The notes beneath the pieces were generated by a model. That model was not told the DNA's origin. It saw only the letters and a list, made by a program, of their open reading frames with translations, and did no database searches. A program made the translations under genes and the position numbers. From Chitinophagaceae bacterium (GTDB taxonomy: Bacteria > Bacteroidota > Bacteroidia > Chitinophagales > Chitinophagaceae), in contig JANNQR010000045.1 of assembly GCA_031400855.1 (NCBI GenBank), positions 690-64,689 on the forward strand: a DNA stretch of 64,000 bases, in the 5' to 3' direction. The first letter of the stretch is position 1. The number at the start of each line of letters is the position of its first letter. Below are positions 1 to 11,097 of this stretch, in pieces.

Positions 1-763
1 TATCTCCATTGGCAGTATTGTAACTGCCTGTGGTATTAAAATGAAGTGCAGAAACTCCATTGGCAGTATTATTATTTCCAGTTGTGTTAGATAAAAGTGA
101 CCGGTAACCAGTGGCTGTATTTTGTATTCCCGAAATATTTTGAGAAAGCGCATTATTTCCGGTAGCGGTATTTCTATTTCCGAGAGTGTTTGAGTAAAGT
201 GTACCTACTCCATTGGCGGTATTTTGATATCCGGATGTATTAGAGAAAAGTGCCACTATGCCAATTGCCGTATTTTCAACTCCAGTACTTAAAGGGTTTA
301 GCGCATCCGTACCAAAAGAAGTATTAGAGGATCCTATTCTACCCGCCCTTACATTATTTCTTTTAAAAATAACATCATTATTGTCCGTCGTTCCTATAAA
401 ATTTGTAGCTGCATTTGTACCTGCATTTCCGGTTAATCCCCAGCCGGTATTGGCACTCACGCCTTTCCAGCTTAGTGCAGCATTATCCCAATAATAAAAT
501 CCGGGTAAATTGGTTCCTGCTGTAGTGGTTAAAAAAACCATCATTCCGTTTTGGTTAACAGTGGGGGCTGTTACCGGAAAAACATTTATCCTTGGTATCA
601 AAATCCCATCTTGGTTGGTAGGTGCGGCGGGGTTGGCTGCTGCAATTTGTAATTTTGCAGTTGGGGTTGTTGTGCCTATACCGGTGTTTTGTGCATAGCC
701 TTTATTGGTTAGCATCAGTACAATTAACAAACTGCTAAAAAGGTAAAGTATTAATGATTTCAT
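1..763 (-). CDS. Secreted repeat protein, adhesin/tail-fibre-like (YadA-head-like NTAxG repeats); 3' end runs off the window
   Basis: Missing from the ORF track because there is no stop in the window. Manual translation from ATG 763: MKSLILYLFSSLLIVLMLTNKGYAQNTGIGTTTPTAKLQI...DGILIPRI...GFYYWD...WGLTGNAGT...NTAIG...NTANG...NTATG repeats; signal peptide ends in AQ; open to position 1. Confidence 0.75.
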   Translation of the reverse strand, partial: MKSLILYLFSSLLIVLMLTNKGYAQNTGIGTTTPTAKLQIAAANPAAPTNQDGILIPRINVFPVTAPTVNQNGMMVFLTTTAGTNLPGFYYWDNAALSWKGVSANTGWGLTGNAGTNAATNFIGTTDNNDVIFKRNNVRAGRIGSSNTSFGTDALNPLSTGVENTAIGIVALFSNTSGYQNTANGVGTLYSNTLGNRNTATGNNALSQNISGIQNTATGYRSLLSNTTGNNNTANGVSALHFNTTGSYNTANGD

Positions 764-810
764 ATTGATAATTTTTACTTACCAAAACTATTCAATACAT
801 AAACCTTAAA

Positions 811-826
811 AATCCCCCGTTTATGG
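811..826. promoter_or_regulatory. Putative NarL-family operator upstream of the secreted repeat gene
   Basis: AATCCCCCGTTT at 811-822 is identical to 1522-1533; lies 48 bp upstream of ATG 763; could alternatively be a weak terminator of the regulator gene. Confidence 0.35.
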
Positions 827-856
827 GGTTTTTGTAAAAAGTGAGAAAGGAGAAGG

Positions 857-1489
857 TCAGACTAATTTTTCCCTAAAAGCTTTAGCCACGGCTTCGGCTT
901 TGGAGTGTACATGGAGTTTTTCGTAAATATTCTTTACATGGCTTCTTACGGTTTCGGTAGATAGAAATCGTTCGGCTGCAATGGCCTTGTAGCTTTTGCC
1001 ATCAGTAAGTCCAATTAATACATCCTGTTCCCTTGGAGAAAGGTTAAATGATTCCGCTGTTTGGTTAGTTTGTTTGCGAAACATTTGTAATACCCGGGTT
1101 GCAATGCTGCCTGTCATAGGTGCGCCACCCTGTACAAAATCATCCAGGGCTTCCATTAATTTGTCAGGCGGTGTTTTTTTTAACAGGTAGCCACTTGCAC
1201 CGGCCATTACGCTGCGAAATATTTTTTCATCGTCTTCAAAAACGGTAAACATCACCACATCCACCGAAGGATAATCTTTCTTTACCAGCTTCACGGCTTC
1301 TATACCATTAATGCCGGGCATATCAATATCCATCAGCAGCAGGCGGGGCATAAAGGTTTCTGTTTGCTCCAGTAATGTACGAACATCATGCAGGGAAAAA
1401 ACTACCCGGAAGCGGCCACTGTTTTCTAACAACAATTGCATGCTGTTACGTAATACATCGTTGTCGTCAACAATTCCAATTGTTGTCAT
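857..1489 (-). CDS. NarL/FixJ-family response regulator (REC + LuxR HTH)
   Basis: IVDDN, LLLMDIDMPG phospho-acceptor, GASGYLLK, C-terminal LSPREQDVL...GKSYKAIA...TVRSHVKNIYEKLHV. Confidence 0.93.
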   Translation of the reverse strand: MTTIGIVDDNDVLRNSMQLLLENSGRFRVVFSLHDVRTLLEQTETFMPRLLLMDIDMPGINGIEAVKLVKKDYPSVDVVMFTVFEDDEKIFRSVMAGASGYLLKKTPPDKLMEALDDFVQGGAPMTGSIATRVLQMFRKQTNQTAESFNLSPREQDVLIGLTDGKSYKAIAAERFLSTETVRSHVKNIYEKLHVHSKAEAVAKAFREKLV

Positions 1490-1521
1490 GACATAAAGGT
1501 GGGTTTATATTTCTTCATTAC

Positions 1522-1540
1522 AATCCCCCGTTTGGGTGAA
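1522..1540. promoter_or_regulatory. Putative autoregulatory operator (imperfect dyad TCCCCC-GTTT-GGGTGA)
   Basis: Dyad in the kinase-regulator intergenic gap, 33 bp upstream of the regulator ATG; shares a 12-mer with 811-822. Confidence 0.35.
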
Positions 1541-1542
1541 AA

Positions 1543-4500
1543 TTATTTTAATGGATAACGCAATTCTATGCTGCATCCTTTACCGGGTGAAGTAGTTATT
1601 ACCAATTCAGCTTTCATTTCATCGGCCCGCTGCTGCATGTTTATTAAACCATTGCCAGTTTTATGATTGGCAATATCAAAACCAATACCATCATCTTCTA
1701 TTTTCAGCACTAAATTTTTATCAATAACCTGCATGCATAGGAAGGCATTTTTACAACCCGCATATTTTATCAGGTTGTTCAATGCTTCTTTATACAGCAT
1801 AAATAAATGCCGCCTGTCCTGCATGGGGATATCAAGCCGGGTGAGCTGGTTATCAAAATCAAGCTGATAGGCTATATCATTTGGTTCCAGCATTTCGGCC
1901 GCCAGTTCTTTCATACGGAGTATAATTCTTTCGATGGAATCATTTTGCGGATGAATGCTCCAGATGATATCATTAATACTGTCTCCGGCATTTTGTGCCG
2001 ACAGGCCAATTTGTGTAAGCAGCGGTGTAACCGGATGCTCATCGCCCAATTGTTTTTTTGCTACCATCGATAGCATATTTACACTGCTCACGGAAGATCC
2101 GATTTCATCATGCAGGTCACGGGAAATACTATTTCGCATCTGTTGCATCTTTAACAGTTGATTTATCCGGTAGTGATATAACAAATACAGAATGGCTGCG
2201 ATTGTGAGTACACTTAATACAATAAACCACCAGGTTTTCCAGAAAGGATAGGCTACAATAATCCTAAATTCTTTTACCTCACTTTCCACTCCATCGGAGT
2301 TTACTGCTTTAATGGCCAGTGTATATTTACCGGATGTAAAGCCTGCAAGGGATAAACTGCGTTGTGCAATAGCTGTCCATTCTTTTTGCAATGGCAGGAT
2401 TTTATAATAAAATTTTGTGCGGTTACCCATTACCATTGAAATGGCGCTGAAATCAATACTTAATTCATTGGCAGAAGAAGGTAACAGGATCCGGTCGTCG
2501 TCAACCACCAGTTCTTTACCGCCGGAAATAAAACGGTTAAAATAAACGATGGGCTTTTGATTGTTTAAAGGTAAGGAATGGATGTTCCAGTGAATGAAGC
2601 CCTCCGGAGTTGCTAATATCATCGTTCCTTTACCCGTAGTAAAAAGGGATTCATAAAAAATATCTGTATGCAAGCCATCTTCTTTATTAAACACATTCCA
2701 CTGTTTCGTCTTCATATCATACCGGCACAACCCACTTACAGTTACCACCCAAATATCATCTTTGTTGTCTCTCACTACATCAAAGGCACGTTGTGCAAGA
2801 AATCCTTCTGATTGAGTATAATGGCGGATAAATTTTTTGGTGCCGGGATTATACACCTGCAACCCCTCATCACTAGGAGTAATCCAGCAATTGCCGGCAG
2901 CATCCAATGCGATATCCACCACTGCTGTATTTGCCAATGACTGGATATTGTTTTCTTGCGGATAAAGATGTTGCCATTCTTCCGTTTGCTGATTATAATA
3001 ATGCAGGCCATTGGAGGTTGCCAGCCAGGGGTTGCCGCTGGCATCAAAAACTAACCTAACCGTTTTCCAATTGTCAATAATTTTATTGCTGCCGTAATAT
3101 TTTGTACGAATAACGCTAAACTTATTTTTTACAGGTTCCCATTTCATCAATTGCTGGTTATTGGCGAACCATACATTTCCTTTACTGTCAGTTGCTATTT
3201 TAAGTAAACCGGAATTTATAAAAGCAGTATCCTTAAATTTTGGAGCTGCATTTAAGAACCGGTCTTTTATTTTATCATAATAATACAGGAAAGGGGCATC
3301 CAGGGAACGAAGCCAGAAATTGCCCACTGCATCTTCAACAATATCTCTTAATCGCCGGTCCACCGCATTACCTTCTATAGCAACAGACCGGATGAACCGA
3401 AAACTGCTATCGTAAATATATATACCATAACCTGAATTGCAACTCATCCAGAATTGCTTAGTATCGTTACGGTATAGTACCGAACTTAAGTACGGCTTGT
3501 AAATATTTTTCCCTTTGGGTTGGTAAAAGGATTGGAACTGCCCCATCCGTTTATAAACCGGGTTCTTTTGAAAAATATTTCCTGGCGAACAAATCCAGGT
3601 ACTGCCATCAGAAGTATGCGTAATACCAGTAAACGCATTTGCATTGTATTTTTCATTTTGTGGTTGCGTACCGCTGAGCAGTAAATATTTTTTTTGATGC
3701 AGGTTGAATTCAAACAACCCTTCATATGTACTTACATACAAAGAAGTATCGCTGCAATAAGCAATATTGGTAATAATATTTCTGGCAAAATTTTGCTTTG
3801 CATATTCCTGTGGGCTTGGAGGGTAGTTTGTAAATTGTTTAGTCAGTATATTAAAATGAATTAATCCACCAGCCCAGGTGCCCAGCCAAATATTAACAGC
3901 ATCTTGTACATGGATAGTATGAAAACTATTATTGATCCATTCTGCTTTACTATTCTTTATATTCTTATAGCCAACAAATATTTTGCTTTTAGTATCAAAA
4001 CGATAAAAACTATTTATACCTGCTAGCCATAAAACATCCGGATTGGCGGCATCGGCTGCAATACTTCTTAGTTGATTATCATCAAGGAAGCCTGCTTTTA
4101 TATTTTTAGGGTTATCTGGAATATACTGGCGAAAGTTATCTGTTTTTTCATCATACAGCAGCAAACCCCGTCCATTGGTACCGAGCCATAAACGTCCCTG
4201 GCTATCTTTAAAAAAATCAAAAACCCAGTAGTGCCAATGTTCATCAGGAGTTGGGTGCAGGTATTGTTTCCATTTACCCGTCTTTCTATCAAGCTTGTTT
4301 ACGCCCCTGCCAAAAGTACTCACCCATAAATTACCAAAACGGTCTTCTTCTATATCCCCAATTACATTGGATGAAATAGTTGTGCTGTCATTCCTTATTG
4401 AAAAAAAAGGAGTGAACTGGTGTCCGTCAAACCGGTACAAACCTGATTCGGTAGAGAGCCACAAAAAATGATCAGAAGATTCAAAAATTTTATTGTTCGT

Positions 4501-5317: not shown

Positions 5318-8300
5318 TTACACTGTTTGCACCTGCACTTCCAACTCAGGGCTTTTCTCCAGGAACTGTATCATTTCTTCATTCATTTCAAAGCCGTTGC
5401 CGGTAGTTACGAGGCTGATTCTCATCTTGTTCTTTGGTTCTGTTAAAATGAACTTTAAAGTTGAATTTCCCCGGTGAGAACTCACATTTTTTTCTACAAA
5501 TGCTACCATTGCGGCACTGATATCCTGCGGATGGGCTTCAATCGTTATTGTTTTTGTCATGTTCCGTTTCATGGTTTCGGCGAGTGAAACAGACATTACC
5601 TTAAATTCAAATTCGTCTTTATTGTATCTTGGTTTGAAATATCCGTTGATAAGTACCGTACTTCCTTGTTGTAAAATGGGAAAAAGACGCAGATAATCTT
5701 CACTAAACAAAGGGAACTCTGTTTTTCCGGAGTAATCTTCGATAATGAAATTGCCATATTTGTTTCCGCTTTTTTGTGCTATCCTGTGTTGGGCATCAAC
5801 TACCATTGCCACCAAACGGAATGGTCTGCCGGGATTGGGCTGCATTTTTATTTCATCCTTAAACTCATTGAAATCTGCAATGGTGGTAACGCCATAATGC
5901 CGCATTTCAAACTTGTAATTATCCAACGGGTGGCCGCTTAAAAATATGCCCGTTACTTCTTTTTCATTATCTAATTGTTTGATCAATGGCCATGGTTCAC
6001 AATCAGGAATTCTTGGTGGCGGTATTTCCATACTGATGGGTAAATCGCCAAACAAGGTATTGGTAGCTGTTGCATTTTGTGTGGCATATATCTGCCCATA
6101 CTTAATAATTTTTTCAATACCGTTCATCATTTCGCCTTCGGGTACATTAAAATATTGTGCCCGGTGGTGTTCTGGAAAACAATCGAATCCACCTGAATGA
6201 GCAAGGCTTTCTAATGTTTTTTTATTAACAGTGCGTTGATTGATGCGTTTGATGAAATCAAAAATGTTGACAAAGGAGCCGCCTTTTTTTCTTTCATCAA
6301 TAATACTTTCTATGGCGGCTTCACCCACACCTTTTAATCCGCCAAGACCAAAACGAATTTCACCTTTATCATTTACGGCAAAACCTTTTAATGATTCATT
6401 GATGTCCGGCCCCAGTACTTTTAATCCCATTCGTTTACATTCTTCCATAAAGAAAGTGATCTTGTCAATACTGCCGGCGTTGTTCAACACCGCTGACATA
6501 TATTCAGCAGGGTAGTGGGCTTTTAAGTAAGCTGTCTGATACGCTACATACGCATAACAGGTGGAGTGAGATTTGTTGAATGCATATTGTGCAAATGCTT
6601 CCCAGTCAGTCCAGATTTTTTCTAATCGTTCAACAGGCAATAATTTTTGTGTAGCTCCTTCAATAAACTGTGCTTTCATTTTGTCCAGCACCGACTTTTG
6701 TTTTTTACCCATTGCCTTCCGAAGAACATCCGCATCACCTTTGCTGAAACCGGCTAATTTTTGCGCCAGCAACATTACTTGCTCCTGGTATACGGTAATA
6801 CCATAAGTTTCCTGCAGGTATTCTTCCATCTCAGGCAAGTCGTACTGAATAGATTCACGGCCATGCTTACGGTCAATATAGTTAGGGATATAAGCAATAG
6901 GGCCGGGGCGGTACAAGGCATTCATGGCAATCAGGTCGCCGAATTTATCGGGCTTTAATTCCCGTAAATATTTCTGCATGCCGGCACTTTCAAACTGGAA
7001 TGTACCGATAGTAGCGCCGTGTTGATAGAGTTCAAATGTTTTTTTATCATCCAATGGAATTTCATCTAAATCAATTTCTACTCCGTGAATTAATTTGATA
7101 AGAGCCAACGCATTTTTTAAAACGGTCAGGGTCTTCAATCCCAAAAAGTCCATTTTCAGGATACCTGCATTTTCAATATCATTTCCTTCAATCTGTGTCA
7201 GCCATAGCGTAGATTCTTTGGAAACAGCAATCGGAATCATCTCCATCAAATCTTTTGGTGCGATGATGATACCTGCCGCATGAATGCCGGTACTGCGGAC
7301 AGAACCTTCCAGTCGTTCTGCTTCATGTAATACTTTACTCAAAACAGATTTGGTGTCTTTATAGATTTCCCGGAGCTTTTTTACATTCTCCATGTCATCA
7401 TTGCCCATGCCTTCTTTTTCTTCGAGAGATGTTTCACTCCGTCCGCCTTGGGCATCAGGACGGACATCTTTTATTTTCATTGGCGCATGTAACACTCTCC
7501 GCAGTTCTGTACCCGGGCGGTCCGGAACTAATTTAGTTAAGGCACGACTTTCGGGCAATGGCAAATCCATTACTCTGGCCACATCGGCAATGCTTGATTT
7601 GGCAGCCATCGTACCATAGGTAATGATTTGTGCTACCTGGTTCTTGCCATACTTTTCTACTACGTAGTCAATTACTTTTTGCCTGCCTTCATCATCAAAG
7701 TCGGTATCTATATCCGGCATTGATTTACGGTCGGGATTTAAAAACCTTTCGAATAGTAAATTATATTTTATCGGGTCAATGTTTGTGATGCCGATACAAT
7801 ATGCCACCACCGAACCTGCAGCTGAACCACGTCCCGGACCGATGAATACACCTTTATCTCTTCCGGCCTGTATAAAATCGCCAACAATTAAGAAGTAACC
7901 GGCAAAGCCCATCATGCGGATGGTGAACAATTCAAACTCTAACCGTTCTCTTATTTCGTCCGTTATTTCTTTATATCGTTTGTCAGCACCCTGATACGTT
8001 AGTTCTTTTAAATATTCCCACTGGTTTTGCGACTCCGCAGATACTTTGTATTTACCAATCGTTTCTTCTTTGGTATGAATCTGGAACCGTTTTTCAATCG
8101 GGAAGTTGGGCAGCAAAATATCCCTTGTTAAATTCAACAACTCAACTTTATCTATTACTTCATTGGTATTATCTATGGCTTCGGGCAGGTCGTGAAAAAC
8201 CTTGCTCATTTCTTCCGTTGTTTTAAAATAAAACTGGTCATTAGGAAAAGCAAAGCGTTGTTTTGTTTTTACCTGAACATCGTCATCATTAAATTCCCGC

Positions 8301-9025
8301 AGCGCATCATCTTGTATTTTTGCACCAGTATTAATGCATAATAAAATATCGTGGGCATTAAAATCATCCTGCTCCACATAATGTGAATCGTTGCTTGCAA
8401 TGATTTTTACTTTATACTTTTTGGCAAATTTTATTAATACTTCATTTACTTTATCCTGATCGGCCATGCCATGGCGTTGCAGTTCTACATAAAAATCTTC
8501 CTGGAAAATATTCAACCACCATTTGAATTCGTTCTCTCCTTCCTCTACTCCCTTTTTCAAAATGGCTTGTGGTACCGATGCGCCGAGGCAGCAGGTGGTA
8601 GCAATTAGTCCCTCATGGTATTTTTGAATGAGTTCTTTGTCTATACGTGGATATTTACCATACATGCCTTCTACAAATCCAAGCGAAGTAAGTTTGATCA
8701 GATTTTTATAACCAACTTCATTCTTTGCCAGCAATATCTGGTGATGGCGTTTATCCTTTATTTCTTTGGTAAATGTTTTTATGTGGCGGTTTTCTGTAAT
8801 GTAAAATTCACAGCCTACTATGGGTTTTACTTTTACAGTGCCATCATCATTCTTATGTTTATAGGCTTCGGCTACAAATTCAAAAGCACCGAACATATTG
8901 CCATGGTCGCTGATGGCCAATGCGGGCATGCCATCTTTAATGGCTTTCTTATAAAGATTTTGAATGGATGCTGCTCCGTCTAACAGAGAAAATTGTGTAT
9001 GTACATGGAGATGAGAAAATTTCAT
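5318..9025 (-). CDS. dnaE: DNA polymerase III alpha subunit
   Basis: HLHVHTQFSLLDG PHP start, GPGRGSAAGS, MPDIDTDFD catalytic motif, KMDFLGL, YAFNKSHS, GIFLSGHPLD; no intein. Confidence 0.98.
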   Translation of the reverse strand: MKFSHLHVHTQFSLLDGAASIQNLYKKAIKDGMPALAISDHGNMFGAFEFVAEAYKHKNDDGTVKVKPIVGCEFYITENRHIKTFTKEIKDKRHHQILLAKNEVGYKNLIKLTSLGFVEGMYGKYPRIDKELIQKYHEGLIATTCCLGASVPQAILKKGVEEGENEFKWWLNIFQEDFYVELQRHGMADQDKVNEVLIKFAKKYKVKIIASNDSHYVEQDDFNAHDILLCINTGAKIQDDALREFNDDDVQVKTKQRFAFPNDQFYFKTTEEMSKVFHDLPEAIDNTNEVIDKVELLNLTRDILLPNFPIEKRFQIHTKEETIGKYKVSAESQNQWEYLKELTYQGADKRYKEITDEIRERLEFELFTIRMMGFAGYFLIVGDFIQAGRDKGVFIGPGRGSAAGSVVAYCIGITNIDPIKYNLLFERFLNPDRKSMPDIDTDFDDEGRQKVIDYVVEKYGKNQVAQIITYGTMAAKSSIADVARVMDLPLPESRALTKLVPDRPGTELRRVLHAPMKIKDVRPDAQGGRSETSLEEKEGMGNDDMENVKKLREIYKDTKSVLSKVLHEAERLEGSVRSTGIHAAGIIIAPKDLMEMIPIAVSKESTLWLTQIEGNDIENAGILKMDFLGLKTLTVLKNALALIKLIHGVEIDLDEIPLDDKKTFELYQHGATIGTFQFESAGMQKYLRELKPDKFGDLIAMNALYRPGPIAYIPNYIDRKHGRESIQYDLPEMEEYLQETYGITVYQEQVMLLAQKLAGFSKGDADVLRKAMGKKQKSVLDKMKAQFIEGATQKLLPVERLEKIWTDWEAFAQYAFNKSHSTCYAYVAYQTAYLKAHYPAEYMSAVLNNAGSIDKITFFMEECKRMGLKVLGPDINESLKGFAVNDKGEIRFGLGGLKGVGEAAIESIIDERKKGGSFVNIFDFIKRINQRTVNKKTLESLAHSGGFDCFPEHHRAQYFNVPEGEMMNGIEKIIKYGQIYATQNATATNTLFGDLPISMEIPPPRIPDCEPWPLIKQLDNEKEVTGIFLSGHPLDNYKFEMRHYGVTTIADFNEFKDEIKMQPNPGRPFRLVAMVVDAQHRIAQKSGNKYGNFIIEDYSGKTEFPLFSEDYLRLFPILQQGSTVLINGYFKPRYNKDEFEFKVMSVSLAETMKRNMTKTITIEAHPQDISAAMVAFVEKNVSSHRGNSTLKFILTEPKNKMRISLVTTGNGFEMNEEMIQFLEKSPELEVQVQTV
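7441..7465. repeat. Short palindrome inserted in frame in dnaE (VRPDAQGGR)
   Basis: Coding strand GTCCGTCCTGATGCCCAAGGCGGAC: GTCCG/CGGAC plus CCT/AGG stem; GC-rich island in an AT-rich gene; GGCGGAC end shared with the polX insert. Confidence 0.55.
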
Positions 9026-9037
9026 AGTAAAAAAAAA

Positions 9038-9457
9038 TTAATGTTTCAATTTAAGAAACCCTGATATAGTTATTATGGAAGTGTTGCCAATTTTTTTCAT
9101 ATCTAATAAATCATTGTCCCCGGTAAGTAGAAAATCGGCCTGTCCATCTATTGATAAGGATAAAAGAAAATTATCTTTTGGGTCACGGCAGATAGTAACG
9201 TTGCTTTTTGTTTCAACAAAATCGATATAGGGGTCAAATACAGAAAGCATTTCATTTAAAGCATCTTTTGTAAAAAATTTTTTTAGCTTTGGTTTTGTAA
9301 TTGTTACTTCAATCTCGTTGATAAGTTCTGCACTAAAAAGTAACCTTACTTTTCCTGCAAACAAAAGGTGATCCAACAAATTTATTTTTTTTGAAATAAT
9401 AAAACTTACCCAAAGGTTTGTATCGATAATGAGCCTGAGTGTTTTATTTTTTGGCAT
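9038..9457 (-). CDS. PIN-domain toxin (putative toxin-antitoxin toxin, PIN_3-like)
   Basis: LRLIIDTNLWVS, AELINEI, CRDPKDNFLL, ADFLLTGDNDLL: acidic PIN motifs; start overlaps the upstream small gene. Confidence 0.88.
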   Translation of the reverse strand: MPKNKTLRLIIDTNLWVSFIISKKINLLDHLLFAGKVRLLFSAELINEIEVTITKPKLKKFFTKDALNEMLSVFDPYIDFVETKSNVTICRDPKDNFLLSLSIDGQADFLLTGDNDLLDMKKIGNTSIITISGFLKLKH

Positions 9458-9659
9458 AACGTTTGGCCCTTACATCTTCAACGATTTTGGTAATTTCTTC
9501 GAGGCTTGGGGAATTAGCTGTTTTGCGCCTCATCTTTTTCAGATAGGTTTTTAATTTTGATGCTGGCTCATCACTTACTTTGATAAGTTTAAGGTCTTGC
9601 ATGCCCTTAATAAGTGTTAAAGCTTTTGGGTTTAATATATCAACTGTAATTGTACTCAT
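9444..9659 (-). CDS. Putative antitoxin (71 aa)
   Basis: Small gene overlapping the PIN toxin by 14 nt; N-terminal beta/helix pattern MSTITVDILNPKALTLIKGMQDLKLIKV; role inferred from position. Confidence 0.65.
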   Translation of the reverse strand: MSTITVDILNPKALTLIKGMQDLKLIKVSDEPASKLKTYLKKMRRKTANSPSLEEITKIVEDVRAKRYAKK

Positions 9660-9762
9660 AGGTCAAATTTAAAAAAATAAATGGACTTACTTCAAATTGT
9701 TTTAAAGCTCTGTCAGCCAGCAAGGAGAACTGGGTGTGGACATGGAGATGGGAAAATTTCAT
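9640..9762 (-). pseudogene. Duplicated 5' stub of dnaE (40-aa ORF starting MKFSHLHVHTQFSLL)
   Basis: First 15 codons encode exactly the DnaE N-terminus with 9 synonymous codon differences, followed by ADRA (DnaE has DGA), then unrelated sequence; TGA stop at 9642-9640 overlaps the antitoxin gene. Confidence 0.85.
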
Positions 9763-9861
9763 AGGACAATATTCCTCTTTATATATTTTTTATCTATCAG
9801 GAAAATTTTAAATCACAGTTCACTGGCTCGTGACTCGTAGCTAACAACTCGCAGCCATCTC

Positions 9862-11097
9862 TTAATCCTTATTCTTGTCTTTATCCTTAAACTTTTTCTT
9901 AAACGAATAGATGCTAATCGAACCACTGCTATAACTGCACACCCAAGCTTCCAGTGTTTTATCATTTTCAAATATATCAACACCCACCGGATGGCCGCCA
10001 CAGGGCAAAGATGCCACTTTCTCAAAGTTGTCGGAATTGATTTTGTACACATCCACATAGTCACTGGTGTAGCAGGTTACGAAAATAAACTTATGATTTT
10101 TTGATAATACAATCGTTCTGGGTTGCGAATGGGTTTTAGCAGAATATAATTGTTTGCCTGTCGCCACATCTATACAAGCAATAGTGCCGAGGCTGTTGTA
10201 CGATACAAATAAATGTCCGCTGGTATCCATTACAATATGCCGGGGGCTGCTCCACACATTCAGAATGCTTTCGCTTTTCCAGGTATTGTTATCTACCACA
10301 TTCAAACTGGAACCACCCATAATGGCGATATAGGATTTTTGATTCTTATCATCCACGGCTATACCTCTTGGAATAGCTGATACAGGAATGGTGCTGATCA
10401 CTTTTCCATAGGGTAAAGCTGTTGAATCCATTTGGAGCACACTTGTATTTCTTGAATGCCAGTTGCTTACTAATAAATATTTACTGTCAGCGGTTCTGGA
10501 TATTACTTTTGGTGTTTTACCGGTTTCAATCAATGGTACCCTGAAAGAATCTTTTTTCATTTCACCGGGATAAATAACGGTCACCGGTTTTGTTTTTTGT
10601 TCAGCGGTAGTAACCGCATTATTTTTTGAAAAATTATTTACCCAAATCGGAACAATACCATCAGCATTATGCAAAGACACCCATAATGTTTCATCACCAT
10701 GACTGAAACAGGCTTCTACCGGTTTTTCCTGGTAAGATGCGATGGGACGGCTGCGGTTATAATCCCAGCCCATTCCCCGGGTTGGGGTGAATTTGAATTC
10801 ACGGGTCAGTTTCCTGCTGGCCTGATTAAATTCATAAACACTCATTCCTTCCAGGTTCATGGCATAAAGTTTTGAACCAGTAGCATTAAAAATGACAGAT
10901 TTAGTGCCTTCGGCAGCATTCAAAACCTCCTTTTTTTCATATTCAATATCTGAATAGGGTTTAAGGGGCGGAGTTACAGGAATCGAATCTTTAACGACCT
11001 TTTTCAAAAGTGAATCGTTAGATATCTCCTTGCTTCCAGAGTTGTTGCAACTTGTAGTCAGGATGAAAAAAGTGAAAGCGGATAGTATCGTTTGCAT
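9862..11097 (-). CDS. YncE/YVTN-type beta-propeller lipoprotein
   Basis: Lipobox LTTSC; repeats TGKTPKVI, SAIPRGIAVD, SSPRHIV, SQPRTIVLS, GGHPVGVD. Confidence 0.8.
   Translation of the reverse strand: MQTILSAFTFFILTTSCNNSGSKEISNDSLLKKVVKDSIPVTPPLKPYSDIEYEKKEVLNAAEGTKSVIFNATGSKLYAMNLEGMSVYEFNQASRKLTREFKFTPTRGMGWDYNRSRPIASYQEKPVEACFSHGDETLWVSLHNADGIVPIWVNNFSKNNAVTTAEQKTKPVTVIYPGEMKKDSFRVPLIETGKTPKVISRTADSKYLLVSNWHSRNTSVLQMDSTALPYGKVISTIPVSAIPRGIAVDDKNQKSYIAIMGGSSLNVVDNNTWKSESILNVWSSPRHIVMDTSGHLFVSYNSLGTIACIDVATGKQLYSAKTHSQPRTIVLSKNHKFIFVTCYTSDYVDVYKINSDNFEKVASLPCGGHPVGVDIFENDKTLEAWVCSYSSGSISIYSFKKKFKDKDKNKD

Follow-up and report, generated by a model that had tools for sequence, protein, structure and literature searches.

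The window analysed here, a stretch of 64,000 nucleotides (nt) from a Chitinophagaceae bacterium, contains dnaE, the gene for the DNA polymerase III alpha subunit, together with a small toxin–antitoxin (TA) cassette that separates this gene from a second, partial copy of its own 5' end. In what follows, the 5' end of dnaE is termed its head and the partial copy the stub. On the minus strand, a gene for a YncE-like beta-propeller protein is followed by a 99-nt spacer, the open reading frame (ORF) that begins with the stub, a gene for a partner protein of 71 amino acids (aa), a PIN-domain gene, a gap of 12 nt and the intact dnaE gene (Table 1). A promoter and two genes, for the 71-aa partner and the PIN_3 toxin, are all that the 737-bp unit between the two heads contains; its GC content is ~30%, as against ~40% in the flanks. 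Comparison of DnaE with a set of 80 genomes, comprising Chitinophagaceae and other Bacteroidota, places the host in an uncultured Chitinophagaceae lineage.

Table 1. Features of the dnaE locus; positions count from the first letter of the window.
Feature	Position	Strand	Evidence or remark
dnaE, DNA polymerase III alpha subunit, 1235 aa, intact	5318..9025	-	ORF; residues 1–450 are 67–92% identical to DnaE of 80 genomes
Functional dnaE head, right repeat copy: 7 nt 5' of ATG plus codons 1–15 (weaker homology to codon 18)	8972..9032	-	Codons 1–15 at 8981–9025
Gap TTTTTTTTTACT, 12 nt, from PIN stop to dnaE ATG	9026..9037	-	Terminator absent; too short for a promoter
PIN_3 / TIGR00305 putative toxin, 139 aa	9038..9457	-	Pfam and NCBIfam matches above cut-offs
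71-aa partner, putative antitoxin	9444..9659	-	14-nt overlap with PIN start
Cassette promoter (putative): TTTG (9693–9696), 21-nt spacer, TAAATTTG (9664–9671)	9664..9696	-	Ends 4 nt before antitoxin ATG
dnaE head stub, left repeat copy: codons 1–15 pristine, 16–19 degenerate (GCT GAC AGA GCT)	9706..9769	-	Codons 1–15 at 9718–9762
Stub ORF, 40 aa, entering the antitoxin start, unconserved	9640..9762	-	L004 counterpart stops after 19 codons
Native propeller–dnaE spacer, still joined to the stub	9763..9861	-	5' half homologous to the spacer of empty-site L162
YncE-like beta-propeller lipoprotein gene, conserved 5' neighbour of dnaE	9862..11097	-	Order kept in at least 13 relatives

The PIN protein scores 67.9 bits with PF13470 (cut-off 27) and 98.1 with TIGR00305 (cut-off 29.15), and it keeps all of the acidic residues (D12, E44, E48, D92, D95, D114 and D116) that are invariant in 120 PIN homologues. 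Its 71-aa partner contains no Pfam domain detectable by profile search, and its best match to an antitoxin profile, VapB15, is far under the cut-off of 80 (E = 0.0099, 16 bits). An AlphaFold model of the partner consists of three helices and is of low confidence (pLDDT 66.7, pTM 0.30), a DNA-binding fold could not be recognised for the partner, and a sequence search of the PDB returned no solved structure for any member of the family. Homologues of the partner are numerous, with 568 found, nearly all of the 120 listed being 71 aa long and none carrying a Pfam domain, and partner and PIN gene occur together, in the same arrangement and with the same overlap, in ~55 loci of unrelated context. 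The ratios of non-synonymous to synonymous divergence (dN/dS) against the sister species L004 are 0.17 for the PIN gene and 0.12 for the partner gene, and both genes are, judging by these values, under purifying selection. The pair has much in common with the type II VapBC-like PIN modules (PIN_3, TIGR00305), including small overlapping genes with the partner 5' of the toxin, acidic catalytic residues, an own promoter directly 5' and a patchy distribution among close relatives. The point of difference is the 71-aa partner, for which the profile search gave no antitoxin family above its cut-off. The pair is regarded here as a minimal type II TA operon, composed of a putative toxin and a putative antitoxin.

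In most members of the family, whatever the locus, a TAnnTTTG box, most often TAAATTTG, stands 4–6 nt before the partner ATG. A scan for sigma-70 promoters is uninformative for Bacteroidota, and this motif was used in its place; TTTG followed by 21 nt and TAnnTTTG is what we take to be the −33/−7 promoter form of Bacteroidota. If the box belongs to such a promoter, a nearly leaderless TA transcript is implied. In the window the box sits within the stub ORF, between the stub codons and the antitoxin ATG, and this position would make TA expression independent of the stub, which the main TA transcript would exclude. A second exact TAAATTTG box is located at 9377–9384 on the minus strand, within the PIN coding region and ~350 nt 5' of dnaE. 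A contig from one sample, X3 (depth 75, shorter side 30 nt), skips 80 nt of the PIN gene, 9305–9386; the skipped region is bordered by A/T runs and could represent either a variant whose toxin is inactivated by the deletion or an artefact of assembly in low-complexity sequence.

Codons 1–15 of the stub encode MKFSHLHVHTQFSLL, the same peptide as residues 1–15 of DnaE. When the stub is compared with the functional head, 9 of these 15 codons differ (10 nt) and replacements are absent. Past codon 15 the stub continues with GCT GAC AGA GCT (A-D-R-A) where dnaE has GAC GGA GCA (D-G-A), the difference arising via a 3-nt insertion and a GGA>AGA change, and the stub ORF terminates 20 nt into the antitoxin gene. 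A sequence-only reading of this DNA had already reported the identical 15 residues with nine synonymous codon changes and no replacement, the A-D-R-A continuation and the 40-aa stub ORF overlapping the antitoxin start; all of these, with the coordinates and sequences given there, were found as described when re-read from the sequence. Its label for the stub, a synonymously recoded duplicate, is misleading, as ordinary divergence between orthologous genes is what the two heads display. The pair is also returned, unprompted, by a direct-repeat search (45 nt, 82% identical, 737-nt spacing; 8988–9032 and 9725–9769). Local alignment of each dnaE head with its own 3 kb of upstream sequence gave z = 12–23 against shuffles in the window lineage and in L004, and by the same test an upstream copy of the head is absent from the other ~80 relatives (~85 dnaE loci).

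Contigs from three separate freshwater-sediment samples cover positions 8892–10246 with at most one differing letter, situated at a contig end, at a word depth of 13–58, and both junctions are crossed by contigs from all three samples. The same order of propeller, stub, partner, PIN and dnaE is found in L004 and L005, which come from two other Joint Genome Institute (JGI) metagenomes, at a synonymous divergence (dS) of ~0.7 from the window. Taken together, the contigs of the three samples and the architecture of L004 and L005 make an assembly artefact very unlikely. A chimera in which metagenome assembly fused the dnaE heads of two strains, an outcome that the sequence-only reading had itself named as one that would speak against its interpretation, draws some plausibility from the related species that share these samples and from the possibly chimeric contig L001 discussed below. 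It is nonetheless hardly credible, given that the depth across the junctions is even and that an independent, diverged species from other metagenomes has both the same architecture and the same junction.

The order propeller–dnaE is kept in at least 13 relatives, in none of which is the PIN/71-aa cassette present. Such sites are called empty here in the sense of lacking this cassette, and they occur in L161, L162, L160, L008–L011, L014, L015 and others, each with a single dnaE head that aligns with both repeats of the window. By propeller protein the closest relatives are L161, L162 and L160, and all three are empty. The propeller proteins of L161 and L162 are 93% and 87% identical to that of the window, and their spacers measure 38 nt and 162 nt respectively; the neighbours of the cassette are housekeeping genes, and the gene order is conserved in both of these empty-site relatives. 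The dnaE distances among the window, L004, L161 and L162 range from 0.097 to 0.137 and form an unresolved cluster, with the consequence that occupied and empty states are interleaved. No further dnaE-linked cassette was found among the nearest partner homologues, all of which stand in other contexts. In L004 the gap between PIN and dnaE is 14 nt, and the stub has decayed: it starts with GTG, carries F3L, H5N and a 1-nt deletion, and can be read for no more than 19 codons, stopping 50 nt short of the antitoxin gene. Compared with the head of L004 itself, this stub has 21 nt identical in a row in addition to the replacements and the frameshift, and it differs from the stub of the window at 7 of 45 nt. 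The sequence-only reading had also named stub decay with non-synonymous changes in relatives among the outcomes that would count against its interpretation, and L004 is where such decay is seen; the comparison with related genomes that it proposed, an empty site versus other cargo, yielded both, the former in L161, L162, L160 and others and the latter in L008, L009 and L014.

In L009 and L008 the propeller–dnaE spacer is filled by a DUF4160/DUF2442 pair (L009:2843-3979, L008:3487-3937). In L009 this pair is flanked by a 253-bp direct repeat, 92% identical, that corresponds to the propeller tail plus spacer, and the inner copy of the repeat is frameshifted. Judging from its occupants, the propeller–dnaE spacer is a hotspot for small cargo. 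The corresponding spacer of L014 holds an ORF for a predicted membrane protein of 102 aa without a Pfam match (L014:3538-3846). One further contig, L001 of the Logan collection (1–3810), combines two lineages: its left 1400 nt are 100% identical to L160, an empty-site contig of a metagenome-assembled genome of another species, and the next 2141 nt are 100% identical to window positions 7893–10033. The switch occurs within a 33-nt run common to both lineages, and at the switch point on the window side one sample's contig stops. Because the switch lies in this shared run, L001 may be a k=31 assembly chimera, and it was set aside as proof of a recent interspecies transfer, being ambiguous and compatible with a k=31 graph chimera. 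Were it genuine, it would be a recent recombinant, with 2.1 kb imported into another species whose natural locus, that of L160, is empty.

For a comparison beyond dnaE, 72 loci of the TA family were taken from metagenomes and the flanks of each cassette compared. A flank repeat scoring at least 30 is present in ~21 of 51 TA loci, a count that leaves out four rows, includes some loci twice and contains several array repeats that are not gene-end copies; among random control positions, 0 of 213 had a flank repeat scoring at least 25. Repeats of the end of a neighbouring gene are found in four loci, L128, L114, L124 and L133. In L128 the last 27 codons and the stop of a convergent mfd/TRCF gene (87 bp) are duplicated across the cassette; 8 codons differ between the copies, the stop included, and all 8 differences are synonymous. 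The locus provides a second and independent case of the pattern seen in the window. L114 has a 62-bp copy of an ABC-ATPase tail with 90% identity, L124 a 45-bp copy of a tail plus terminator region (3 synonymous differences and 1 replacement) and L133 a 45-bp copy of the tail of a PIG-L family protein (1 synonymous difference and 1 replacement). In all four the stub is found at the cassette's outer side, and the distance from the PIN stop to the intact gene end is 11–13 nt in L128 and L124, 71 nt in L133 and 193 nt in L114. In L119 a related cassette with a similar leader, but without a detectable stub, is found at the same mfd tail as in L128; this could be what the L128 locus looks like at a later age or after being resolved differently.

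The flank repeats of L094, L097, L098/L099, L104/L106 and L113 were considered as scars and excluded, as they are palindromic units, present in many copies, of cassette arrays and do not duplicate gene ends. In such arrays the TA family occurs in units of ~1–2 kb with repeated separators of ~90–210 nt (L094:1633-5526, L104:1071-3677, L097:494-3626), and the separator in L094 is palindromic (CTCTTAGTGAAAC...GTTTCACTAAGAG). From their layout, the L094, L104 and L097 arrays, which belong to other bacteria, look like cassette arrays of the integron type.

These arrays bear on the possibility that the cassette in the window is what remains of an integron cassette or of an element that integrated site-specifically, with attL and attR in the dnaE head and a recombinase that was lost or acted in trans. 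Integrative elements often bring with them a replacement gene end. That replacement gene ends are common in such elements, that the insert in the window is bracketed by direct repeats and that the same TA family occurs in cassette-like palindromic-repeat arrays (L094, L097, L104) would all suit an origin of this kind, and the likeness extends to the islands that integrate at gene ends or tRNA genes, where the copy brought by the insert restores the gene and part of the original, now displaced, stays behind at the opposite border. However, inspection of the flanking genes revealed neither an integrase nor a transposase near the cassette, and a repeat search neither terminal inverted repeats nor an attC-like palindrome, which agrees with the sequence-only reading in respect of the integrase and terminal repeat. 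No integrase lies within the conserved gene order, and dnaE starts just 12 nt past the PIN stop. Moreover, the repeats vary in length (45–253 bp) and in target (dnaE head, mfd tail, ABC-ATPase tail, terminator region) and have no common core, and the insert, unlike gene-end integrative islands, measures only 737 bp and has neither an integrase nor a common att core. An integrative origin is thus improbable.

The closest known phenomenon is the insertion with long target duplication (about 100 bp, variable) of restriction–modification gene complexes (Nobusato et al. 2000, Gene 259:99; Furuta, Abe and Kobayashi 2010, PMC2853133; review PMC3874152). As in those complexes, a compact addiction-type module without a mobility gene lies between direct repeats of more than 30 bp, the single copy in an empty-site relative aligns with both repeats, the length and target of the repeat vary by locus, and the insert's GC content is below that of the flanks. 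Set against the operational criteria of Furuta et al. (2010), the module is complete, lacks mobility genes and is, with its 737-bp spacing, far smaller than the 20 kb allowed; the head repeat, which can be extended to ~57 nt, exceeds 30 bp. Unlike in the restriction–modification complexes, a TA pair of the PIN type forms the cargo, what is repeated is the end of a coding sequence, that of an essential or housekeeping gene, and the copies in the window and in L128 differ only synonymously (10/10 and 8/8), which points to joined orthologous copies and not to the identity of copies at insertion that the Furuta criteria imply without stating it.

A true insertion of this type would mean that ~50 bp of the resident dnaE head were copied at insertion, through staggered breaks or replication template switching, and that the copies then diverged in place. 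The operational criteria are in its favour (the system is complete and the insert small, mobility genes are lacking, the repeat exceeds 30 bp and an empty site aligns to both copies), as are the L004 stub, which resembles a decayed L004 head with its 21-nt identical run, replacements and frameshift, and the L009 stub, in which replacements and a frameshift are mixed. The differences in the window and in L128 tell against it, as a neutral stub should gather mostly replacements. From the site counts we calculate that, under decay in place, each difference has a ~0.34 chance of being synonymous, which gives ~2e-5 for 10 of 10. In addition, a stub as old as the split at dS ~0.7 should bear many changes. 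We consider target duplication an unlikely explanation of the window, tenable as the founding event only with later renewal of the stub.

The absence of replacements among the differences suggests that each head belonged to a working gene, in a genome of its own, while the two diverged, and it favours a homology-anchored additive recombination over duplication in place. On this evidence, the head pair in the window resembles two orthologous dnaE heads from different Chitinophagaceae species and not a copy decaying in place. Throughout the family the DnaE N-terminus MKFSHLHVHTQFSLLDGAASI is invariant save for an occasional K2Q or F12Y, the synonymous positions are saturated, and the heads of any two species differ at 1–13 of 45 nt. 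The stub differs from the heads of L161, L162 and L004 at 6, 11 and 5 nt, and the functional head at 9, 5 and 10 nt. Because the synonymous sites are few and saturated, calling one 45-nt head native and the other foreign by the heads of relatives was rejected. GC content at third codon positions (GC3; functional head 2/14, stub 10/14, TA genes 0.28, dnaE 0.39) was likewise rejected as a marker of origin, as the values fall within the scatter of 15-codon blocks of dnaE.

The two parts of the stub seem to be of different age. The 12 nt past codon 15 and the junction CTGGCTGACAGAGCTTTAAAACAATTTGAAG have degenerated when set beside dnaE but are the same in L004, while the 45 nt before them carry no replacement despite a dS of ~0.7 to L004, so that the stub should be younger than that split or else renewed. 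On this comparison, the window stub appears to be a hybrid, young in its 5' part and old in its 3' part. At the joint of stub and cassette there is a 4-nt GCTG repeat, a possible microhomology. The bases just 5' of the two starts (9763–9769 and 9026–9032) match within each genome, being CT in the window and ATC in L004 (L004:520-525 versus 1258-1263), and differ between the two; this match within genomes could be a sign that one copy has converted the other, or that the events were separate.

It could be supposed instead that the stub is functional, as a translated upstream ORF or leader that couples expression of the TA pair or of dnaE to the dnaE initiation signals; this was the second of the two options put forward in the sequence-only reading. 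In the window the stub keeps an ATG and 15 intact codons behind its native upstream spacer, its ORF reaches 20 nt into the antitoxin gene, and stub and leader are more similar between the window and L004 than is the spacer 5' of them. Nevertheless, in L004 the ORF is broken by the GTG start, the two replacements and the frameshift that stops it 50 nt short of the antitoxin, the 7 of 45 nt by which the two stubs differ are usual for any two dnaE heads, and at other loci the stubs are gene tails without a start codon. The family-wide promoter box lies 3' of the stub codons, inside the stub ORF, and the main TA transcript would omit the stub. A conserved role of this kind is very improbable and the option is not supported: because the L004 stub has decayed and the sites of relatives are empty, the stub is better understood as a recombination scar than as a conserved leader.

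We consider it probable, though by no means assured, that the TA operon came to lie at the 5' end of dnaE by additive recombination anchored in homology of the dnaE head, and not by a transposase or integrase. In this account, the incoming DNA would have carried the cassette together with the dnaE head of another lineage, and the join would have left two heads, a stub that keeps the native spacer and encodes nothing useful, and a functional head that runs on into the resident dnaE. The other option of the sequence-only reading, the arrival of a foreign head by recombination that left the old head as a stub, fits the all-synonymous differences, the native spacer at the stub, the empty sites and the low GC content of the cassette. 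The GCTG at the joint would then possibly be the microhomology of the founding illegitimate join.

Once formed, the arrangement of repeat, cassette and repeat could propagate itself, with the stub on one side and dnaE (head plus body) on the other serving as two homology arms. Both arms of a linear donor would match the single gene end of a recipient, and an ordinary RecA double crossover would move the cassette to an empty site. The new stub would consist of recipient sequence up to the crossover and of donor stub beyond it, the functional end would be that of the donor up to the second crossover, and each transfer would turn the formerly functional head of the recipient into a fresh stub. 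Such a use of the stub as an arm would explain why pristine codons 1–15 stand beside an old junction shared with L004. It would also explain why the functional head is unusually diverged, differing at 9 of 45 nt (in codons 3–15) from that of L161, the nearest relative with an empty site, and then identical to it over codons 16–20. The decayed stub of L004, where the cassette would have been resident for longer, and the interleaving of empty and occupied lineages would be explained in the same way. More generally, and only tentatively, the PIN_3/71-aa cassettes may be mobile units that rely on host recombination, each carrying a fragment of a housekeeping gene as a homology arm and placed by RecA at the same locus in related species; candidates for such arms are the dnaE head, the mfd tail and the ABC-ATPase tail.

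Several observations weigh against homology-anchored addition. The repeat pairs of L004 and L009 have the appearance of decay in place, and the founding event may for this reason have been a true long target duplication. No donor tract is visible in dnaE past ~nt 66, which would place the crossover within or just after a short homology that is ~20% diverged, where recombination would be inefficient. The affinities of the heads are split, the stub being nearer to L161 and L004 (6 and 5 nt) and the functional head nearer to L162 (5 nt). The sole candidate for a recent interspecies transfer, L001, may be chimeric. Finally, we know of no natural competence or other route of DNA entry in this lineage.

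In mechanistic terms, the closest models are homology-facilitated illegitimate recombination and Campbell-type additive integration, with which the locus would share the addition of foreign DNA via one anchor in a conserved gene (here dnaE, mfd or an ABC ATPase). In laboratory experiments, homology-facilitated events usually delete recipient DNA and do not duplicate it. The homology available at dnaE, perhaps only 45–57 bp and ~20% diverged, also sets the present case apart from them. One published account of homology-facilitated illegitimate recombination describes one end as joined by homology and the other at a microhomology of 3–10 bp (PMC3240628); insofar as this description applies, the short microhomology at the other end could here be GCTG.

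The addition of the cassette has a consequence for dnaE itself, as the functional gene no longer has its native upstream region. On the dnaE strand no terminator-like hairpin was found between the stub and dnaE, and only three TAnnTTTG boxes are present, one in the propeller gene (conserved in L161 and L162), one in the cassette promoter and one in the PIN gene. The box inside the PIN gene is absent in L004, and any role of it as an internal promoter of dnaE is therefore not conserved. Since the native upstream region is lost, a terminator is lacking and the boxes are limited to these three, the most likely source of dnaE transcripts is read-through that starts at the cassette promoter or at a point further upstream. 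Co-transcription of the TA pair with dnaE, which the sequence-only reading had held to be probable, is plausible in view of the 12-nt gap and the lack of both a terminator and a conserved promoter box; a look for this sequence among RNA runs found none that contain it. Were this true, a site 12 nt before an essential gene would tie the cassette promoter to dnaE expression and make deletions of the cassette costly.

The finding extends phenomena known for restriction–modification systems and for homology-facilitated recombination and is not a new kind of element; a TA-specific report of insertion with duplication of a gene end was not found in the searchable literature. The movement of chromosomal TA pairs outside mobile elements is poorly explained, and this locus and its relatives offer a concrete and testable route, in which short fragments of conserved genes would act as recombination handles. 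The scar expected of such a route, a copy of a gene end that differs only synonymously from the intact one, can be searched for in any genome collection. For the Chitinophagaceae lineage described here, an addiction module in the transcription path of the replicative polymerase could link TA autoregulation to the expression of an essential gene.

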